From Parcubacteria group bacterium (GTDB lineage: Bacteria; Patescibacteriota; Minisyncoccia; Phycocordibacterales; 21-14-all-47-15), in assembly GCA_016181845.1 (NCBI GenBank), contig JACOYO010000002.1:20780-84779 (forward strand): a DNA stretch of 64,000 bases, written 5' to 3'. The notes under the pieces are model-generated. The model ran no database searches and was not told the origin of the DNA. It saw only the letters and a program-made list of their open reading frames with translations. Position numbers and translations under genes: made by a program. Below, piece after piece: positions 2,829-62,130 of this stretch (the stretch's first letter is position 1; every line of letters starts with the position of its first letter).

Positions 2829-4193
2829 ATGTTACTACACTCATCTTTTATGGGAGACACAAAACAATTGTGGCACGACACATTAAATGAAATAGAGACA
2901 AGTGTGTCAAAAGCAAATTTTAGCACGTGGTTTAAGCATACCCACGTGCTAAAACAAGACGACGGGGTAGTGCACGTTGGTGTCCCGAACCCGTTTGTGA
3001 AGGATTGGCTTCAAAGCAAGTACCATAAGCTTATTTTGAAGTCGCTTCGTGGAATTTGCGATGGGGTTCGCGGTGTTGAATATGTTATCTCAAAAGACTC
3101 TGGTGTTGAAGAACCTGTGGTTATTTCTTTTCCTGAAAAAGAGTTTCTTAACGAGCGTTTCCCGATCGGAGATCTTTCGGTAAACAAAGAAGATAATTTG
3201 AACCCGCGATATACGTTTGATACGTTTGTAATCGGAGCTTTTAACGAGACGGCCTACGCCGCGTCTCAAACCATCATAAAAACACCAGGGTCTGCGTTTA
3301 ATCCGTTTTGTGTGTATGGACCAACAGGGCTTGGGAAGACACACCTTATACAATCAATCGGCAACTACTTAAAAAAAGAGGGTGCGCGTGTTTTCTACAC
3401 AACATCAGAAAAATTTTCTCTTGACTACATTACATCCGTTCAAAACAATAAAATAAATGTTTTTAAGGAAAAATATCGCTCGTACGACGTGTTTATAATG
3501 GATGACATTCAGTTTCTGTCAAACAAAGAACGCACGCAAGAAGAGCTTTTCCATCTTTTTAACGTTTTGTACGACAACAATAAACAAATTATTTTTTCAT
3601 CAGACAAGCACCACAACTATATTCCAGGGCTTGAAGACCGCTTGAAGTCGCGCTTTAACGCCGGAATGAACGCCGACATAAATCCGCCGGAATATGAATC
3701 AAAAATCGCAATTTTGCGTGCAAAACTAAATCAGCATAATTTTATTCCTCAAGAGTCGGTCCTTGAATATATCGCGTCTTCAACAACATCAAACATACGC
3801 GAATTAGAGGGGATATTAAACATTATTGCCTTTCAAACACAATTAAAAAAACACTCACTTTCCATAAACGAAGTTCGCGAAATCATAAAAAACAGCACTC
3901 GTCCAAAAAAAACAAAGACAATAGAAGAGGTAATAAGAATTACTGCCGGTTTTTACAACATTGAAGAAGAAATTATCTACAAAAAGACACGGAGGAGGGA
4001 GGTGGTGCGTCCGCGGCAAATTATTATGTATCTCCTCCGTGAGGATTTTAGCACTTCTTTTCCTCTTATCGGACAAAAACTCGGAGGGAGAGATCATACG
4101 ACCGTCATTCACGCGTATGAAAAGATAAAAGAAGACCTGAAAAAAGACAGCACTTTAAACCACGAGATAACACAGATACGGACCATGATATGA
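2829..4193 (+). CDS. dnaA: chromosomal replication initiator DnaA (alternative start at 2850)
   Basis: GPTGLGKTHL Walker A; C-terminal DNA-binding domain; followed by dnaN. Confidence 0.95.
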   Translation: MLLHSSFMGDTKQLWHDTLNEIETSVSKANFSTWFKHTHVLKQDDGVVHVGVPNPFVKDWLQSKYHKLILKSLRGICDGVRGVEYVISKDSGVEEPVVISFPEKEFLNERFPIGDLSVNKEDNLNPRYTFDTFVIGAFNETAYAASQTIIKTPGSAFNPFCVYGPTGLGKTHLIQSIGNYLKKEGARVFYTTSEKFSLDYITSVQNNKINVFKEKYRSYDVFIMDDIQFLSNKERTQEELFHLFNVLYDNNKQIIFSSDKHHNYIPGLEDRLKSRFNAGMNADINPPEYESKIAILRAKLNQHNFIPQESVLEYIASSTTSNIRELEGILNIIAFQTQLKKHSLSINEVREIIKNSTRPKKTKTIEEVIRITAGFYNIEEEIIYKKTRRREVVRPRQIIMYLLREDFSTSFPLIGQKLGGRDHTTVIHAYEKIKEDLKKDSTLNHEITQIRTMI

Positions 4194-15409: not shown

Positions 15410-15563
15410 ATTTTCGTAATTAACAGTAGATTTATACATACGGTCGTTCAAGGAAGAATAACCGTATGTATTTCTTTTCAAGTTTGGTATACCTTTGCGA
15501 TAAATGGATAGCGGATTTGAAAAGGAACATAAGGATAAAATTATCGTGAATTACGAAACGTAA

Positions 15564-15665
15564 AGACGTCCGACTTCTGAAGTGGTAAAACATAGGCATT
15601 CGCCACAAATAAAGTAATTACCACGTCAGAAGTCGGACGTCTTACACATCAGAGGTCGGACGTCT
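15564..15665 (+). repeat. family-A element copy 2 (full hairpin 15564-15642 plus an extra half-site 15646-15665), nested between family-C arms at 15549-15561 and 15672-15684
   Basis: Direct sequence comparison with copies 3-5. Confidence 0.85.
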
Positions 15666-17774: not shown

Positions 17775-17976
17775 CAAAGAAACAAAGAGCAGCCCTTTGT
17801 TGGGGGATAACTTTTTGGGGACTTAGTTCCCAAGAATATATAGAAAGATGTCTTACAAAAGATGGCGCTTTCTTTCGATATATCGAAAGGAACGAAGTAT
17901 GGTTAGCCCTTTGTAGATGGTATGCCAGTATACTGGCATAGTCTTTGTCACTTAGTGGCTCAACTACTAAGTTGAT

Positions 17977-18078
17977 AGACGTCCGACCTCTGCCGTGGTA
18001 AAACATCGGCATTGGCCACAAATAAAGTAATTACCACATCAGAGGTCGGACGTCCCACACAGCAGAAGTCGGACGTCT
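17977..18078 (+). repeat. family-A element copy 3 (17977-18054) plus half-site (18063-18078), then GTTTCGCAATTCAAAGTAT motif
   Basis: Direct comparison. Confidence 0.85.
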
Positions 18079-30765: not shown

Positions 30766-30858
30766 GTAGAGAAGCGTTTGCCCTCGTCGTTCAACTCCGA
30801 CACTTCGGTCGGAGTCCCGACTCCGAGGGTGTCGGGATTATTACAATGAAATAAAATT

Positions 30859-30930
30859 GCCCTCGTCGTTCAATGGATAGGACGCAAGCTTGCGGAGCTT
30901 GTAATAGAAGTTCGATTCTTCTCGAGGGCA
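30859..30930 (+). tRNA. tRNA-Arg (anticodon read as GCG)
   Basis: Manual cloverleaf: acceptor GCCCTCG/CGAGGGC, D-arm GTTC-AATGGATA-GGAC, anticodon stem CAAGC/GCTTG loop TTGCGGA, T-arm AGAAG-TTCGATT-CTTCT, discriminator A. Confidence 0.75.
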
Positions 30931-31167
30931 TAAAAATAATGAGCGCAAAGCGTTTGCTTTGCGCGAATGTATTTTTATAGCCATCAAGAAGAATCGAAAG
31001 GCGGAGGCCGCGAAGCCGAATCCGAAGCGTAGCGCAGGATTCGTGGCCGAGCCGGGGTCGCGAGCCCAAAAATTAAGGAGTGAAACGACTATAATTTTTG
31101 AGGACTTGTGACCGATTCTTCTCGAGGGCATAAAAATAATGAGCGCAAAGCGTTTGCTTTGCGCGAA
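30914..31167 (+). repeat. 200-bp periodic unit: 54-bp direct repeat (tRNA-Arg 3' end + 37-nt trailer) at 30914-30967 and 31114-31167, enclosing a 76-bp GC-rich module (30991-31066) shared with the tRNA-Gly locus
   Basis: Direct sequence comparison; the two 54-mers are identical. Confidence 0.85.
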
Positions 31168-31202
31168 CGCATGTTAGAAACCGATTTGTGGTTTCTTAAA
31201 AC

Positions 31203-33868: not shown

Positions 33869-34075
33869 CGGAATCGGAAGCCGAAATGGGGTCGCGCCGT
33901 AGGCGCGACCCCATTTCGGCTTCCGATACACACCGCAGTCGGGATTTTGCAAGAAAGAAAGTTTAACATCGGCATGCGGAGCGCGGCGAGCCCAGCCAGA
34001 GTTCTTCAGCATTCGGCTATGCGATAGCCGAATACACAGCATTCGGCTATGCGATAGCCGAATGTTGGACAGATT
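33869..34075. repeat. structured intergenic block: 24-bp perfect palindrome (CGGAAGCCGAAATGGGGTCGCGCC-GTAG-GGCGCGACCCCATTTCGGCTTCCG) plus two tandem 27-nt hairpin repeats (CATTCGGCTATGCGATAGCCGAAT)
   Basis: Read directly. Confidence 0.7.
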
Positions 34076-35424: not shown

Positions 35425-35799
35425 ATGAAATACTTGGGCATTGATTATGGAACCAAACGCGTCGGCGTAGCTCTTTCCGATGACGGCGGGACGATGGCTT
35501 TTCCGTATGGCGTTATTCAAAATACTCCAGCGCTTTTTGGCGAGCTGAAAACGATTATCAAAAAACATGAGATTTCGTGTATTGTCGTCGGAGAGTCGCT
35601 TGATTATTCAGGCAAACCAAATCCGGTCATGGAAGAAATAAAAACATTTGTTCGTGAATTGGAAGCAAAAATTGGTATCGCGGTTCAGTATGAGCCGGAA
35701 TTTTTGACCTCCGCGCAAGCGCGCCGCATTCAAGGCGATTCGCACACGCTTGATGCCTCCGCCGCGGCGATTATTTTGCAAAGTTTTTTGGATAAATAG
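35425..35799 (+). CDS. ruvX: putative pre-16S rRNA nuclease / Holliday junction resolvase-like RuvX (YqgF)
   Basis: MKYLGIDYGTKRVGVALSD N-terminus. Confidence 0.8.
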   Translation: MKYLGIDYGTKRVGVALSDDGGTMAFPYGVIQNTPALFGELKTIIKKHEISCIVVGESLDYSGKPNPVMEEIKTFVRELEAKIGIAVQYEPEFLTSAQARRIQGDSHTLDASAAAIILQSFLDK

Positions 35800-35876
35800 A
35801 CGTCCGACCTCTGAATTGGAAACATATCGGCATTGGCCGTAAATAAAGTAATTACCACATCAGAGGTCGGACGTCT
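35798..35876 (+). repeat. family-A element copy 4, between convergent ruvX and the LysM-M23 gene
   Basis: Direct comparison. Confidence 0.85.
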
Positions 35877-44004: not shown

Positions 44005-44868
44005 TTGTATGATAGTCGTATGAAGCCGAAGAAATCATTAGGACAACATTTTCTGAACTCGCCGGAGACGGTGCGAAAAATTATTGAAATCGCGGAACTT
44101 TCGCTGGACGATATCGTGCTTGAAGTGGGACCCGGCAGAGGAGGGCTGACCAAAGCGCTCTTGGAGCGCGCCGGAAAAGTTATTGCTGTGGAAAAAGACC
44201 GTGAACTAAAACCATTTCTTGAAAATCTGTTTCAGGAAGAAATAAAAAAAGGAACGCTCGAGCTTGTGTTCGGCGATATATTGCAATTTACAAAGGAGGA
44301 ACCTTTGTACAAAGGTTCCTCCTTTGTAAATTGTGGGAAAAACTATAAGATTGTGGCGAATATCCCGTATTATATTACCGGCGAATTGCTCCGGCTTTTT
44401 TTGTCCGGAGATTTTCAGCCGAAAAGTATGACCCTTCTTGTGCAAAAAGAAGTCGCGGAGCGTATTGTGGCGCGTGATGGCAAAGAAAGCATTCTCTCAA
44501 TAAGTGTTAAAGCGTATGGTGTGCCGACATATATTCAAACGGTATCGGCGCGCGATTTTTTGCCGCCCCCCAAAGTAGATTCGGCGATTTTGCACATTGA
44601 TGCGATTTCTAAAGATTTTTTTACTTTGCCGACTTGGAAACCCGACGTCCAAGTTGAAGAGGAATTTTTCAAATTGGTAAAAACCGGCTTTGCTCATAAG
44701 CGAAAATTGCTTATCGGTAACTTAAAAAACCCTTATAAATACAAAGGTTCCTCCTTTGTAGTACAAGCGTTAGAAAAATGCTCAATTCCTCAAAACGCTC
44801 GCGCGGAAAATGTCTCGCTTGATGGGTGGAAATGTCTTTTACGGAGAATTATGACTCAGGAATTATGA
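44005..44868 (+). CDS. rsmA: 16S rRNA (adenine1518/1519-N6)-dimethyltransferase RsmA/KsgA, with two in-frame palindromic insertions
   Basis: SLGQHFL, VLEVGPGRGGLT SAM motif, NIPYYIT; YKGSSFV encoded twice by a palindrome. Confidence 0.85.
   Translation: MYDSRMKPKKSLGQHFLNSPETVRKIIEIAELSLDDIVLEVGPGRGGLTKALLERAGKVIAVEKDRELKPFLENLFQEEIKKGTLELVFGDILQFTKEEPLYKGSSFVNCGKNYKIVANIPYYITGELLRLFLSGDFQPKSMTLLVQKEVAERIVARDGKESILSISVKAYGVPTYIQTVSARDFLPPPKVDSAILHIDAISKDFFTLPTWKPDVQVEEEFFKLVKTGFAHKRKLLIGNLKNPYKYKGSSFVVQALEKCSIPQNARAENVSLDGWKCLLRRIMTQEL
44289..44328. repeat. family-D 40-bp palindrome TACAAAGGAGGAACCTTTGTACAAAGGTTCCTCCTTTGTA, in-frame inside ksgA; further copies at 44750-44770 (in-frame) and 44942-44970
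   Basis: Read directly. Confidence 0.8.
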
Positions 44869-45068
44869 ATATAAAAAAGCGCAAAAACCAAAAGAAATTC
44901 ACTTGGAAGCGAAGCTTCCAAGTAAGAGTAAGATAGAAGAGAAATTTTTTGATTCTACAAAGGGTAGCCCTTTGTAGAATTCAATAGATATACACACATT
45001 TGGTACTTTGCCTTTTTGTAACGTGATATACTGTAAGGGTAGAATTAGGAGGATTCTAACTTTTTACT

Positions 45069-48065: not shown

Positions 48066-48144
48066 AGACGTCCGACCTCTGAATTGGTAAAAAATCGGCA
48101 TTAGCCGCAAATAAAGTAATTACCACATCAGAGGTCGAACGTCT
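48066..48144 (+). repeat. family-A element copy 5, immediately upstream of the VirB6-like gene
   Basis: Direct comparison. Confidence 0.85.
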
Positions 48145-50040: not shown

Positions 50041-50607
50041 ATGCCACAGTATACAAAAGAACAATTTGAAGAAAAATTTAACGCTCTTCCGAAAGATATA
50101 CAGGAGGCCATTGTTGCGTCCGATACCGAAAATACGATTAGAGGTATCGGGCAAAAATATCACCTGCATATTGACCAAATCGGAGAATTGATGGAAGCAA
50201 CCGATTTTGTGATGCTCGGCGTGTCGCCACCGAAAGAATATATCCGCGATTTATACCAACGATTTGAATCGGAAGATAAAGAAAAAGTGCGGCAAATCGC
50301 GCATGACGTAAATGAGCAGGTGTTTCAAAAAATCAAAGAGTCTCTCAAGCAGATTCATAATGTAGAAAATGAAACACAAAACATGAAACATGAAACACCA
50401 ATGACTGCGGAACCGCCAAGGACAACAGAATCAAAAGATGAAATAGTTGAAAAAATAGAATTCCCAGAAAAAGAAGAAAAGGATATCGTAAAAGAAAAAC
50501 TTCAGGCGATGAACGTTATGCCGAAAGCGGAATCGGAGTATGAAATGAAACCGGATGGAGGCAACAAGAAAAAATGGAGCGCCGACCCGTATCGCGAACC
50601 GATTTGA
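50041..50607 (+). CDS. acidic hypothetical protein
   Basis: ORF track. Confidence 0.45.
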   Translation: MPQYTKEQFEEKFNALPKDIQEAIVASDTENTIRGIGQKYHLHIDQIGELMEATDFVMLGVSPPKEYIRDLYQRFESEDKEKVRQIAHDVNEQVFQKIKESLKQIHNVENETQNMKHETPMTAEPPRTTESKDEIVEKIEFPEKEEKDIVKEKLQAMNVMPKAESEYEMKPDGGNKKKWSADPYREPI

Positions 50608-50658
50608 ATAGGCAAATCCTATTCAAATCGGTTCGCGAGAATCAAGAATCAAGTTAGT

Positions 50659-59389: not shown

Positions 59390-59633
59390 GGTATAGAGTA
59401 TACGTGAAAAAACACATAAATCAAAATATATTATTGGCCATGGTTGATTTTTATTAGCCAGTGGTGCATACTATTATATACTTGGAAATTCCAAGTTTTG
59501 ATTATATGTATGTTACATATAATCTTTATTTTTCCTTTCCCGCCGTTTTTTATAGATGGCGGGGCTCGGAAGGAAAATCATTGATTATAAGCGGTTTTAT
59601 CTGCTTTTCGGATAAAATCTAATTTAAAAACTT

Positions 59634-59727: not shown

Positions 59728-59771
59728 ACCCGCAACAAAAAACCTCCTTACGGAGGTTTTTTGTTGCGGGT
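59728..59771 (+). terminator. rho-independent terminator
   Basis: ACCCGCAACAAAAAACCTCCTTACGGAGGTTTTTTGTTGCGGGT. Confidence 0.7.
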
Positions 59772-60540: not shown

Positions 60541-60546
60541 AAACTT

Positions 60547-60617
60547 GCGGGATTAGTTTAATGGTAGAACATCAGTTTTCCAAACTGATGGCAGGAGTTC
60601 GATTCTCCTATCCCGCA
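60547..60617 (+). tRNA. tRNA-Gly (anticodon TCC)
   Basis: Acceptor GCGGGAT/ATCCCGC, D-arm GTTT-AATGGTA-GAAC, anticodon stem TCAGT/ACTGA loop TTTCCAA, T-arm AGGAG-TTCGATT-CTCCT, discriminator A. Confidence 0.8.
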
Positions 60618-60875
60618 TAAAAATAAGGAGCACAAAGCGAAGCTTTGGGCGACTATATTTTTTATAGCGGGTATGGAGAATCGAAAGGCGGAGGCCGCGA
60701 AGCCGAATCCGAAGCGAAGCATAGGATTCGTGGCCGAGCCAGGGTCGTGAGCGCATATTTATAAAGAACGTAGCGATTATATAAATAGCGACTCCTGACC
60801 GATTCTCCTATCCCGCATAAAAATAAGGAGCACGAAGCGAAGCTTTGGACGACTATATTTTTTATAGCGGGTATG
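60601..60875 (+). repeat. 200-bp periodic unit: 75-bp direct repeat (tRNA-Gly 3' end + 58-nt trailer including the alr ATG) at 60601-60675 and 60801-60875, enclosing the shared 76-bp GC-rich module (60678-60753)
   Basis: Direct comparison; 2 mismatches between repeats; module 70/76 identical to the tRNA-Arg locus. Confidence 0.85.
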
Positions 60876-62024
60876 AAAAAAAAATCTATTGATACCAAGG
60901 GTCTACGCACGTGGATTGAAATTGACACGAAAGCGCTGAAACATAATTTCAGTATTTTTCGCAATAAAATTGAGCCGAAGGTGCAATTGATGGCCATAGC
61001 AAAGTCAAACGCTTACGGTCATGGGCTGGTGCCGTACGCAAAGACGATGGAGCGTTTTGGCGCTGACTGGCTCGGTGTTGATTCAATCAAAGAAGCGCTT
61101 CGGTTGAGAAAAGATGGAATAAAATGCCCGATTTTGGTGCTTGGTTATACGCTTCCTGAAAATATCTCGCTTGGCGCTCGTTACGCGATTGACCTCACAG
61201 TTTCCACAAAAGAAGGGCTTTCATATTGCGCCAAACTTCCTTCGAGCGACAAACAAAAACTCCGTATCCATTTGAAAATTGATACCGGAATGGGACGGCA
61301 GGGTTTTTTTGCGGAAGACATGGCGGCAGTCGCGCGGTTTCTCAAAAAGAATTTTTCAAAAAACACTATTGCTGGCGTGTATACGCATTTTGCCACGGCA
61401 AAAAATCCGAGTTTCCCGAAAGAGACGCTTGAGCAGATAGGGCGTTTCAAAAAAGCAGTCGCCATACTGCATAATGCCGGCTTCACGCCAATTCGTCACG
61501 CGTGCGCCACGTCCGGCACTATCCTTTTCCCTTCGGCGCATTTTGATATGGTTCGTATCGGCATTGGCTTATTTGGTCTTTGGCCAGCAAAAGAAGTGCA
61601 AGCCGCGTATGAAAAGCGTATCTCTTTGAAACCGGCGCTTTCGTGGAAGACCATTATCAGTGAAGTAAAGACGTTTCCTAATGGGAGCGGTATCGGATAT
61701 GACCTCACCGAAAGATTGCCGGCAGGTTCTCGCATTGCCGTTTGTCCTATCGGATATTGGCACGGCTACCCGCGCGCGCTTTCAAGCATAGGCAGAGGGC
61801 TGATACGCGGAAAAATCGCAAAAATAACAGGCCGTGTTTCCATGGATATGATAGCAATTGATGTAACAAAGATTGCCAACGCGCGGGTAGGGGACGAGGT
61901 CGTTTTGATTGGTTGTGATAAAAACGCCTGTATAACTGCCGACGAGCTGGCGTTTCTTGCCGATACCACCAATTATGAAATAGTTACGCGGATTAACCCG
62001 CTTATCAAAAGAATATATTTATAG
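60873..62024 (+). CDS. alr: alanine racemase
   Basis: AIAKSNAYGHG PLP-lysine motif. Confidence 0.85.
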   Translation: MKKKSIDTKGLRTWIEIDTKALKHNFSIFRNKIEPKVQLMAIAKSNAYGHGLVPYAKTMERFGADWLGVDSIKEALRLRKDGIKCPILVLGYTLPENISLGARYAIDLTVSTKEGLSYCAKLPSSDKQKLRIHLKIDTGMGRQGFFAEDMAAVARFLKKNFSKNTIAGVYTHFATAKNPSFPKETLEQIGRFKKAVAILHNAGFTPIRHACATSGTILFPSAHFDMVRIGIGLFGLWPAKEVQAAYEKRISLKPALSWKTIISEVKTFPNGSGIGYDLTERLPAGSRIAVCPIGYWHGYPRALSSIGRGLIRGKIAKITGRVSMDMIAIDVTKIANARVGDEVVLIGCDKNACITADELAFLADTTNYEIVTRINPLIKRIYL

Positions 62025-62040
62025 ACCCGCGCAAATGAAT

Positions 62041-62109
62041 CCGTGAAGGACGGTCCTTCACGGATTGAAAACAAAAAAATCCCCTGACATAATATCAGGG
62101 GATTTTTTG
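62041..62109. terminator. two hairpin terminators between convergent alr and hup
   Basis: CCGTGAAGGACGGTCCTTCACGG; AAAAAATCCCCTGACATAATATCAGGGGATTTTTT. Confidence 0.65.
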
Positions 62110-62130
62110 TTTTCTTGATCAAGAAAACTT

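Follow-up and report, generated by a model that had tools for sequence, protein, structure and literature searches.

In-frame palindromes of a Parcubacteria ksgA gene as probable intragenic elements of a REP/RAYT system in Patescibacteria

The locus analysed here raises the question of how perfect palindromes come to lie inside the reading frame of a universal housekeeping gene. The gene is ksgA (rsmA), encoding the ribosomal RNA small subunit methyltransferase A, in a Parcubacteria group bacterium (assembly GCA_016181845.1, contig JACOYO010000002.1, positions 20,780 to 84,779). This whole stretch of 64,000 nucleotides (64 kb) is referred to below as the window. An earlier note, made from the letters of the window, had described palindromes within and just beyond ksgA and had likened them to the palindromic elements of Rickettsia (RPEs). 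Our analysis indicates that they are probably intragenic copies of repetitive extragenic palindromes (REPs), and that they belong to two companion families of a system of REPs and REP-associated tyrosine transposases (RAYTs) that is widespread in Parcubacteria and Patescibacteria.

The host gene was identified by its product, which is 100% identical to P0001, 'ribosomal RNA small subunit methyltransferase A [Parcubacteria group bacterium]', contains the RrnaAD domain and both the VGPGRG and ANIPYY motifs of KsgA/RsmA, and has RsmA of B. subtilis and others as its best matches in the PDB. Two families of hairpins are found in and around this gene. Family A has the consensus TAC-NN-AGG-N5-CCT-NN-GTA, i.e., 21 bp with an 8-bp stem and a 5-nt loop. 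Family B, which the earlier note had missed (44632-44654 and 44901-44923), has the consensus (TC)ACTTGG-N11-CCAAGT(GA), and its units of 23-27 bp form a stem of 10-13 bp with a loop of 1-5 nt. The coding sequence contains three hairpin sites, which we designate site 1, site M and site 2 (Table 1). At site 1, the 40-bp palindrome TACAAAGGAGGAACCTTTGTACAAAGGTTCCTCCTTTGTA described at 44289-44328 is indeed present, and it extends to a perfect palindrome of 50 bp. It is made of two family-A units, each of the form TACAAAGG-N5-CCTTTGTA (21 bp), which are inverted and overlap by 2 nt: one at 44289-44309 with the loop AGGAA, the other at 44308-44328 with the loop TTCCT. That is, site 1 has the structure of a zero-spacer inverted REP doublet, as in a REPIN (REP doublet forming hairpins). 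Site M falls in the linker that joins the N- and C-terminal domains of KsgA. Site 2 is the 21-bp second copy of the earlier note; an identical unit exists, but it lies 10 bp upstream of the place given, which was 44750-44770. Both units with the loop TTCCT are read in frame as YKGSSFV, as had been claimed; the left arm of the site-1 palindrome codes for a peptide unrelated to YKGSSFV. The third palindrome, 3' of the gene, is likewise a related family-A unit, but it is found 84 nt after the stop codon rather than 75. Across the window, the pattern TACAAAGGNNNNNCCTTTGTA has 4 matches where 0.01 are expected (0 of 100 shuffles). Of the perfect hairpins in the window whose stem reaches 9 bp or more (n = 31), the sole long one within a convincing gene is the ksgA palindrome.

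Neither family is confined to ksgA. Metagenomes were scanned for family B with the pattern TCACTTGG-N11-CCAAGTGA, and the scan returned at least 127 matches in at least 120 loci (loci are cited below by L numbers). The interior is self-complementary, with at least 4 of 5 pairs formed, in 85 of the 127 matches listed, as against about 1.6% by chance. Among the palindromic matches from the first 80 loci (n = 54), 43 are intergenic, 8 lie within long open reading frames (ORFs) and 3 end an ORF; among the loci listed, ksgA is involved in only two. The core TCACTTGGAAGCGAAGCTTCCAAGTGA of the family-B hairpin that follows ksgA in the window is identical (23/23) in the metagenome loci L110 and L113. 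Four identical B copies occur within 20.7 kb in L216, and a 44-bp doublet of two B units is found in L173 (1111-1154). Beyond the ksgA clade there are 8 hairpins of the family-A type, where about 0.14 would be expected; their NN positions are always complementary. They often lie 8-130 bp from a B hairpin, as in the 3' flank of ksgA in the window; A and B hairpins are adjacent in L123, L127, L128 and L172, and the family-A consensus is also present in the unrelated loci L123, L127 and L173. One family-B REP is read in frame, as ALGNLVSK, within an ORF of a Giovannonibacteria metagenome-assembled genome (MAG) that resembles arginyl-tRNA synthetase (ArgRS), as identified by motif recognition (L058, 6705-6727). 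Thus, the coded palindromes are not ancestral loop sequence that is symmetric by chance, since the same hairpin families recur in other genes and in intergenic DNA. The proposal that palindromes have colonised genes stands to the extent that these families are seen in other genes and intergenic regions of other Patescibacteria, flanking a RAYT-type transposase; within the window, however, all four full family-A copies are at ksgA. In viral contigs the B pattern gave 6 matches, which is the chance level, and searches across loci with 10-mer seeds from the hairpin arms yielded mostly chance matches. One more hairpin family, TGTCAAACA..TGTTTGACA, was observed inside ksgA at site M of L058 (10523-10547) and in intergenic DNA of unrelated loci (L100, at about 2880; L216, 3215-3241).

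The gene associated with family B provides the connection to a transposase. In L101 and L162, an ORF of about 220 amino acids is located between inverted B REPs and matches Pfam Y1_Tnp above the gathering cut-off. RAYT-like ORFs are present in 22 of the 120 loci listed, and 20 palindromic B matches lie within 200 bp of such an ORF. Inverted B REPs flank the RAYT gene in 17 loci (e.g., L101, L138, L149 and L216), an arrangement referred to as a REPtron; the GTTGAC-type REPs of L019 and L032 are arranged in the same way. An HUH motif and a tyrosine, the latter in YVNLN, are invariant in the RAYT-like proteins. The family has 4264 homologues, which are named 'transposase' in NCBI records of Patescibacteria, Paceibacterota, Yonath-, Zambryski- and Kaiserbacteria; JGI names relatives 'REP element-mobilizing transposase RayT'. 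The sole NCBIfam match is REP_Tyr_transpos, at 23 bits against a cut-off of 80. Sequence-only searches of the PDB with a RAYT-like protein or its profile gave no match, and a fold search was needed. With the AlphaFold2 (AF2) model of the protein as query, the top match is the E. coli RAYT in complex with a REP hairpin (4er8_A; E = 4.9e-6), with TnpA of IS608 ranked below. Judged by this predicted fold, the protein associated with family B is an HUH/Y1 transposase of the RAYT type. Because its hairpins flank Y1_Tnp ORFs for which there is this evidence of RAYT identity, family B is a REP family with a REPtron.

The RAYT genes themselves contain REPs in frame. In 10 of 14 RAYT loci, two conserved positions of the ORF accommodate perfect REPs, one or two per gene (Table 1), which are translated into peptides such as QLGGLTAKL. 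The interior of these in-frame REPs has the genome-specific sequence of the flanking REPs; in L149, for example, ACTTGGAAACTAAGTTTCCAAGT is found four times. In the predicted RAYT structure, the segments they encode (QLG..SK) are low-confidence loops. In-frame REPs are therefore a regular feature of the REP/RAYT system, and not a peculiarity of ksgA.

In several Parcubacteria, moreover, a RAYT gene stands directly beside ksgA. The window and other Parcubacteria have the gene order uvrD ... ksgA - TSP3-like gene - large ORFs in common. The RAYT gene lies between uvrD and ksgA in L019 (9319-10001) and L032 (9257-10951). In L032 its stop codon overlaps the ksgA start, and the ksgA gene there carries, in the site-2 loop, an in-frame REP of the family of the adjoining RAYT. 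In L182 (1426-2977) and L216 (9139-10690), ksgA is instead followed by the RAYT gene and then by the TSP3-like gene. A distance of 17-35 nt separates the ksgA stop from the left REP of the RAYT gene, which is at the position equivalent to that of the family-B REP that follows ksgA in the window. In L160 (103-1921), the RAYT gene is directly upstream of the TSP3-like gene, in the same slot. This adjacency is thus seen in at least three Parcubacteria lineages, with different REP families, and in the window the slot 3' of ksgA is occupied by the cluster of one B and one A REP. The conserved place beside ksgA in L019, L032, L182/L216 and L160 is consistent with a vertically inherited RAYT, which fits better than an active insertion sequence (IS) because the syntenic position is kept in several lineages.

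How the hairpins have evolved can be followed in orthologues. The close clade of KsgA in the protein database has nine members (P0001-P0009, at least 63% identity), and DNA was examined for eight relatives (L001-L006, L087 and L088). Orthologues at 63-79% identity retain palindromes at the same sites, where the sequence is different and yet complementary. The site-1 palindrome persists in five relatives, centred on the same codon but with a changed sequence, such as the 48-bp AGTTCACCGAGGCCTTGCCTCTGTACAGAGGCAAGGCCTCGGTGAACT in L001 or a palindrome with a GCGC centre in L002. In an alignment of six sequences, both sides have changed in 13 of 24 pairs, and 93.8% of the cells are paired; none of 500 shuffles reached this pairing, and no slid register comes near it. 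Three of the six orthologues have perfect Watson-Crick arms over 24 bp, and G.T intermediates are few. The copies also agree across sites within a genome: the loop is TTCCT or AGGAA at three units in the window, and CAAGG or CCTTG at sites 1 and 2 and in the 3' flank of L001, where the loop peptides are YRGKASV/YKGKAFV. Family B shows the same behaviour: in L087, TCACTTGGAGGC-TTC/GAA-GCCTCCAAGTGA is found at site 1 and again overlapping the stop codon. Because the copies are alike within each genome, we conclude that not only the arms but also the sites evolve in concert. The site-1 peptide has shifted from FTKEEPL/YKGSSFV in the window to FTEALPL/YRGKASV in L001. The loop peptides are thus dictated by the DNA hairpin and not by protein function, in that the copies are alike and self-complementary within a genome and drift between genomes. 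L003 and L004 have longer perfect hairpins of the B type at site M, and in L002, L087 and L088 the terminal TGA of the hairpin end CCAAGTGA serves as the ksgA stop codon. Assembly artefacts were considered and ruled out by the occurrence of same-site palindromes with different sequences in independent NCBI, ENA, JGI and Logan assemblies. A 20-bp perfect palindrome, TTCAATCGCGCGCGATTGAA, is also kept inside a uvrD-like helicase ORF, in L001 (164-183) and L088 (3644-3663).

Hairpins are more frequent in ksgA than in other genes. The ksgA genes of the clade contain 14 perfect hairpins in 6.8 kb, whereas the density in the remaining long ORFs of these loci is 0.062 per kb; the P value of this difference, 4e-17, is inflated by shared ancestry. 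A control set was obtained by a KsgA scan of genome contigs in which the relatives listed are all at 53% identity or less; this set also yielded L019 and L032. In 80 other Patescibacteria loci, the density is 0.208 hairpins per kb in ksgA against 0.080, with 11 observed where 4.2 are expected (P = 0.004).

The hairpins encode parts of KsgA that appear to be tolerant. In the AF2 model (pLDDT, the predicted local distance difference test, 86.7), all three coded segments are in low-confidence surface loops, and the loop placement given in the earlier note is borne out. Site 1 is the lowest-confidence loop of the model (residues 93-100, pLDDT below 50); site M covers residues 201-210 (mean pLDDT 68), and site 2, at residues 237-243 or so, is the loop between predicted helices H231-236 and H244-253. 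The coded segments are thus predicted to sit in three disordered loops, and the inserts would be neutral for the protein. As for the suggestion that they are lineage-specific insertions, sites 1 and M are indeed 5-7 codons longer than in the nearest outgroups, and site M has a 7-codon excess over L001, L002 and L006, but a clean insertion is not seen at every site; the loops of B. subtilis KsgA are of almost equal length. Where there is no length excess over palindrome-free orthologues, existing codons must have been replaced by the hairpin.

These observations suggest, as the simplest interpretation, a mechanism in which the ksgA neighbourhood would be the home site of a REPtron, from which REPs would have spread locally. 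In the lineage of the window, a RAYT gene may once have adjoined ksgA and since gone, leaving its REPs behind; the three copies inside the coding sequence and the B+A cluster in the 3' flank would be those that remain. Only in-frame, stop-free copies in tolerant ksgA loops would have been retained, and the copies in the coding sequence would survive because they are in frame, contain no stop and code for disordered surface loops. By analogy with the RAYT-REP and IS608 complexes, the RAYT would recognise the hairpins in single-stranded form and cleave them at the base of the stem, which is conserved. Such recognition would fit the conserved termini and an interior that is variable and yet homogenised within a genome; it would also fit loops in both orientations and replacement without change of length. 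Either RAYT action, or local template switching and gene conversion, may have seeded the ksgA copies and may still homogenise them. For maintenance, template switching at quasipalindromes (PMC7202029) and short-patch conversion (PMC6649704) are plausible. Both are directly suggested by L001, from the Lloydbacteria MAG GCA_016214585.1, whose ksgA has a 96-bp in-frame insertion (30 aa, 3111-3206) that is about 80% identical to its own 3' flank (3824-3919) and has the microhomology GAAAT(T)ATAAAA at both junctions; a 31-bp site-2 segment (3663-3693) is duplicated in the same flank (3920-3950). We are doubtful about, but would mention, a bolder idea, namely that the REP-RAYT system of Patescibacteria actively updates coding hairpins, in the RAYT ORF and in ksgA, to the current REP sequence of the genome. 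If so, there would be a RAYT-dependent activity of hairpin replacement or conversion that rewrites short coding segments, and perhaps a regulatory coupling of the REP/RAYT system with a gene of ribosome biogenesis.

Several findings weigh against the assignment to a REP/RAYT system. The number of copies visible in the source genome, i.e., in the 64 kb read, is low, at four full A copies, three B-like copies and two relics, and the full A copies are all at ksgA. A RAYT gene or remnant was not detected in the window, where the best tblastn match has only E = 0.2, nor was a RAYT found in the loci of the close clade. No family-A hairpins were seen to flank a RAYT; what comes closest is L103, where GTCAAAG-type hairpins with a stem of 9-10 bp and a 5-nt loop surround a divergent RAYT (L103 and L156 have two divergent RAYT paralogues each). 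The unpaired GTAG or CGTC end tag of known REPs is absent from family B, which ends in TCACTTGG/CCAAGTGA; in family A, 3 of 6 window copies read ...TTTGTAG, but inside the stem or continuing it, so that the tag is partial. Finally, L006 has no palindrome at site 1 and yet a loop of 16 codons, as in L003-L005, and site 2 of L001 is of the same length as in L006, L087 and L088. At least at sites 1 and 2, then, replacement or conversion must be invoked.

Table 1. Hairpins and associated features in the window, and in-frame REPs of RAYT ORFs in other loci
Feature	Position	Strand	Sequence or product	Remarks
ksgA/rsmA coding sequence, host of the in-frame hairpins	44020-44868	+	282 aa	ORF; Pfam RrnaAD, E = 3e-43
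Site 1, 50-bp perfect palindrome	44284-44333		encodes QFTKEEPLYKGSSFVN	head-to-head doublet of two family-A 21-bp units
Site M, degenerate family-B unit	44632-44654		ACTTGGA-AACCCGACG-TCCAAGT; encodes TWKPDVQV	in the coding sequence
Site 2, single family-A unit	44740-44760		TACAAAGGTTCCTCCTTTGTA; encodes YKGSSFV	21/21 identical to 44308-44328
Family-B REP, 3' flank	44901-44923		ACTTGGAAGC-GAA-GCTTCCAAGT	33 nt past the ksgA stop codon
Family-A REP, 3' flank	44952-44980		ATTCTACAAAGGG-TAG-CCCTTTGTAGAAT	CTAC...GTAG ends; 84 nt past the ksgA stop
Probable decayed family-A copy	17783-17801		ACAAAGAGCAGCCCTTTGT	intergenic; 16/19 identity to 44957-44975; weak evidence
Probable family-A half-copy	17901-17917		GGTTAGCCCTTTGTAGA	intergenic; 16/17 identity to 44961-44977; score marginal against the null
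Short B-like hairpin	59480-59496		ACTTGGAAATTCCAAGT	intergenic
In-frame REPs of RAYT ORF, L101	2674-2700; 2954-2972			
In-frame REPs of RAYT ORF, L149	924-952; 1223-1247			
In-frame REPs of RAYT ORF, L216	10188-10218; 10457-10483			

An alternative to transposase-linked REPs is that the coding palindromes are autonomous to the locus, having arisen in situ and being kept by template switching and short-patch copying with the 3'-flank hairpins, with no transposase involved. Such a mechanism has been documented (PMC7202029), and it is the one proposed to account for coding palindromes in Nematomorpha mitochondria (PMC6649704). It would suit the perfect Watson-Crick arms of half of the six orthologues, with their few G.T intermediates, the palindrome-free L006 loop of equal length, and the insertion and duplication in L001 that copy its own flank through microhomologies. 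However, the same hairpin consensus is found in unrelated loci and organisms, flanking RAYT genes (the B core in L110 and L113, family A in L123, L127 and L173), which makes a de novo origin at ksgA implausible, and the other strong hairpins of the window have seeded no copies into neighbouring genes. We thus consider this explanation unlikely as a whole. Because template switching may still maintain the copies, it is better seen as a component of the REP/RAYT explanation than as its rival.

It could also be that the hairpins are functional cis-elements of the ksgA mRNA, through autogenous control of KsgA by mimicry of 16S helix 45 (h45) or of the anti-Shine-Dalgarno (anti-SD) sequence, through RNase III, or through ribosome pausing. 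Selection on the structure of the RNA would then account for the conservation of the hairpins and for their concentration in ksgA. The folding of the ksgA transcript is stronger than that of shuffled sequences (z = -7.2, 0 of 20 shuffles), and the enrichment of hairpins in ksgA extends to distant Patescibacteria, as described above. Unit 1a of site 1 reads AGG-AGGAA-CCU, which resembles the h45 apex, AGG-GGAA-CCU, and unit 1b contains CCUCCUUU, which resembles the 3' end of 16S rRNA (as in E. coli 16S). Translational autoregulation of E. coli ksgA was reportedly described by van Gemen et al. in 1989. Against a role in the mRNA, the loops vary among orthologues (AGGAA, CCTTG, GAA, C, TAG and others), both orientations are found, the hairpins are also present outside ksgA, namely in intergenic DNA, RAYT genes and the ArgRS-like gene, and the ksgA genes of L006 and L182/L216 have no hairpins in the coding sequence; nor is there a match to an Rfam family. 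Mimicry of helix 45 or the anti-SD in particular was rejected, in view of the different loops in L001 and L004 (CAAGG) and in family B and of the same hairpins beyond ksgA. We regard a function in the ksgA transcript as very unlikely. That YKGSSFV is selected as a peptide, e.g., as a duplicated binding motif, with the DNA symmetry incidental, has in its favour that the heptapeptide occurs twice in one protein, but is effectively refuted and hardly credible: the peptide varies freely between the window and L001 while the DNA stays palindromic, the segments are predicted disordered loops, the left arm of site 1 encodes an unrelated peptide and the third copy, at 44952-44980, is non-coding.

Other candidates were set aside. 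The family-B arms are not a copy of the ksgA 5' end, where TCACTTGG would stand for the codons of Ser-Leu-Gly in KKSLGQ; in the clade this place reads TCATTAGG, and the resemblance thus stems from shared codons alone. There is no switch in GC skew in the window that would indicate nearness to a replication origin or terminus. Rfam identifies just four tRNAs in the window, and no other known RNA family. Neither hairpin 3' of ksgA is followed by a run of T on the + strand, as an intrinsic terminator of ksgA would be, and the one terminator-like signal predicted lies on the minus strand. An ORF at the window's left edge, examined as a possible RAYT, proved unrelated.

Taken as a REP/RAYT system, the elements can be compared with those of E. 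coli and Pseudomonas (PMC3116915, PMC5581495; 4er8). They share with them short palindromes of 20-40 bp that occur as singletons, inverted doublets and clusters; a mostly extragenic location (43 of 54 B, in metagenome loci); an HUH/Y1 gene between inverted REPs whose product matches RAYT in fold; and homogeneity within a genome together with divergence between genomes. They differ in their hosts, the Patescibacteria with their very small genomes, in a copy number that is seemingly low, in the lack of a GTAG tag in family B, and in a stem whose base is conserved while its interior varies by compensatory change. The REPs are moreover found in frame inside the RAYT ORF, at two conserved positions, and repeatedly in ksgA, and the RAYT proteins are longer here (about 220 aa) and only distantly related. 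With IS200/IS605 elements they have in common a Y1 HUH transposase that recognises, or here would recognise, subterminal hairpins, and the B-RAYT-B unit, at about 700-740 bp, is of IS200 size; in contrast to these elements, solo hairpins far outnumber transposase genes (85 palindromic B matches against 22 loci listed, in a sample selected on the hairpin).

In-frame palindromes as such have precedents. Intragenic REPs of the GTAG/CGTC type, including dimers and genes with two sites, have been described in Opitutus, in Thauera and as RPE-4 and RPE-6 of Rickettsia (Di Nocera et al. 2013, PMC3733652). The statement that such elements are known in only a few lineages was therefore too strong, as they are documented in several phyla. 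As in those cases, single units and head-to-head dimers lie in frame in genes of known function, sometimes at two sites per gene, and the REP terminus can supply the stop codon (here in L002, L087 and L088); family A is similar to the CGTC REPs in its stem of 8-9 bp and loop of 4-5 nt. Here, however, the sequence families and the phylum are different, the gene affected encodes an rRNA methyltransferase, whereas that study put the emphasis on genes of repair and replication, and orthologous copies in the coding sequence could be followed over nine genomes, with compensatory and concerted evolution. The term 'RPE-like' does not fit, in that the units are of REP type and 21-27 bp long, compared with 100-150 bp for Rickettsia RPEs. 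RPE-1 likewise consists of palindromic in-frame inserts in conserved genes that are translated as surface loops, and the 96-bp element in the ksgA of L001 is like it in size and concept; RPE-1 is nevertheless Rickettsia-specific and unrelated in sequence, and its symmetry is reported to be lost over time (as summarised in PMC6649704), whereas the window units remain perfect. The coding palindromes of Nematomorpha mitochondria (PMC6649704) are also perfect inverted repeats of which both arms are translated and whose arm identity is kept across species. They reach 284 bp, cover conserved protein regions and have no dispersed family linked to a transposase.

Our literature search found no paper that links RAYT or REPIN with Patescibacteria, which is not proof of absence; JGI already labels proteins of this group RayT. 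What appears to be new is the host group, the conserved in-frame REPs of the RAYT ORF, the recurrent neighbourhood of RAYT and ksgA, and the compensatory and concerted evolution of coding copies. Work on REPs and on RAYTs, their domesticated transposases, has centred on Proteobacteria, and what they do is still a matter of debate. Here, they would be found in the streamlined genomes of ultra-small Patescibacteria, where the persistence of repeats is unexpected, and inside the reading frames of a housekeeping gene and of the transposase itself. Because orthologous copies can be traced across genomes, they offer a direct view of a DNA hairpin that dictates the sequence of a protein loop. The conserved neighbourhood of RAYT and ksgA is a testable handle on the origin of REP spread, and perhaps on the role of the RAYT. 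In marker proteins, such inserts inflate the apparent variability of loops and may be mistaken for lineage-specific protein features.

Elsewhere in the window, traces of family A are faint. The earlier note had reported recurrent motifs at 17785-17904; AGCCCTTTGT is indeed found at 17789-17798 and 17905-17914, but the 16/17 match GGTTAGCCCTTTGTAGA scores barely above the null.

The window also contains other repeats. Family C consists of intergenic elements of 77-100 bp, at 1804-1892, 15563-15665, 17977-18078, 35798-35876 and 48066-48144. Their ends are inverted repeats of 25 nt, TAGACGTCCGACCTCTGA.GTGGTAA, and their core of 29 nt is inverted in the first copy; two copies have an extra right arm. 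The arms have 14 matches against 0.6 expected, and the elements look like a REPIN or a miniature inverted-repeat transposable element (MITE). GC-rich elements of about 200 bp stand right after tRNA-Arg (30858-30931), at 30913-31175, and tRNA-Gly (60546-60618), at 60600-60880. Each is bracketed by a direct repeat of the 3' end of its own tRNA, the repeats being exactly 200 bp apart, and the cores are about 95% identical; neither element has an Rfam match. They may be copies of a miniature element with tRNA genes as its target. After tRNA-Ser there is a related perfect hairpin of 55 bp (33873-33927). Finally, long perfect intergenic hairpins with stems of 14-21 bp, and a tandem-inverted 27-mer, are located at 34007-34067, 50592-50638, 59728-59771 and 62038-62128. 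In L004, the sequence CGTGAAGGA.GGTCCTTCACG of 62041-62063 is found again a short way upstream of ksgA (968-988).

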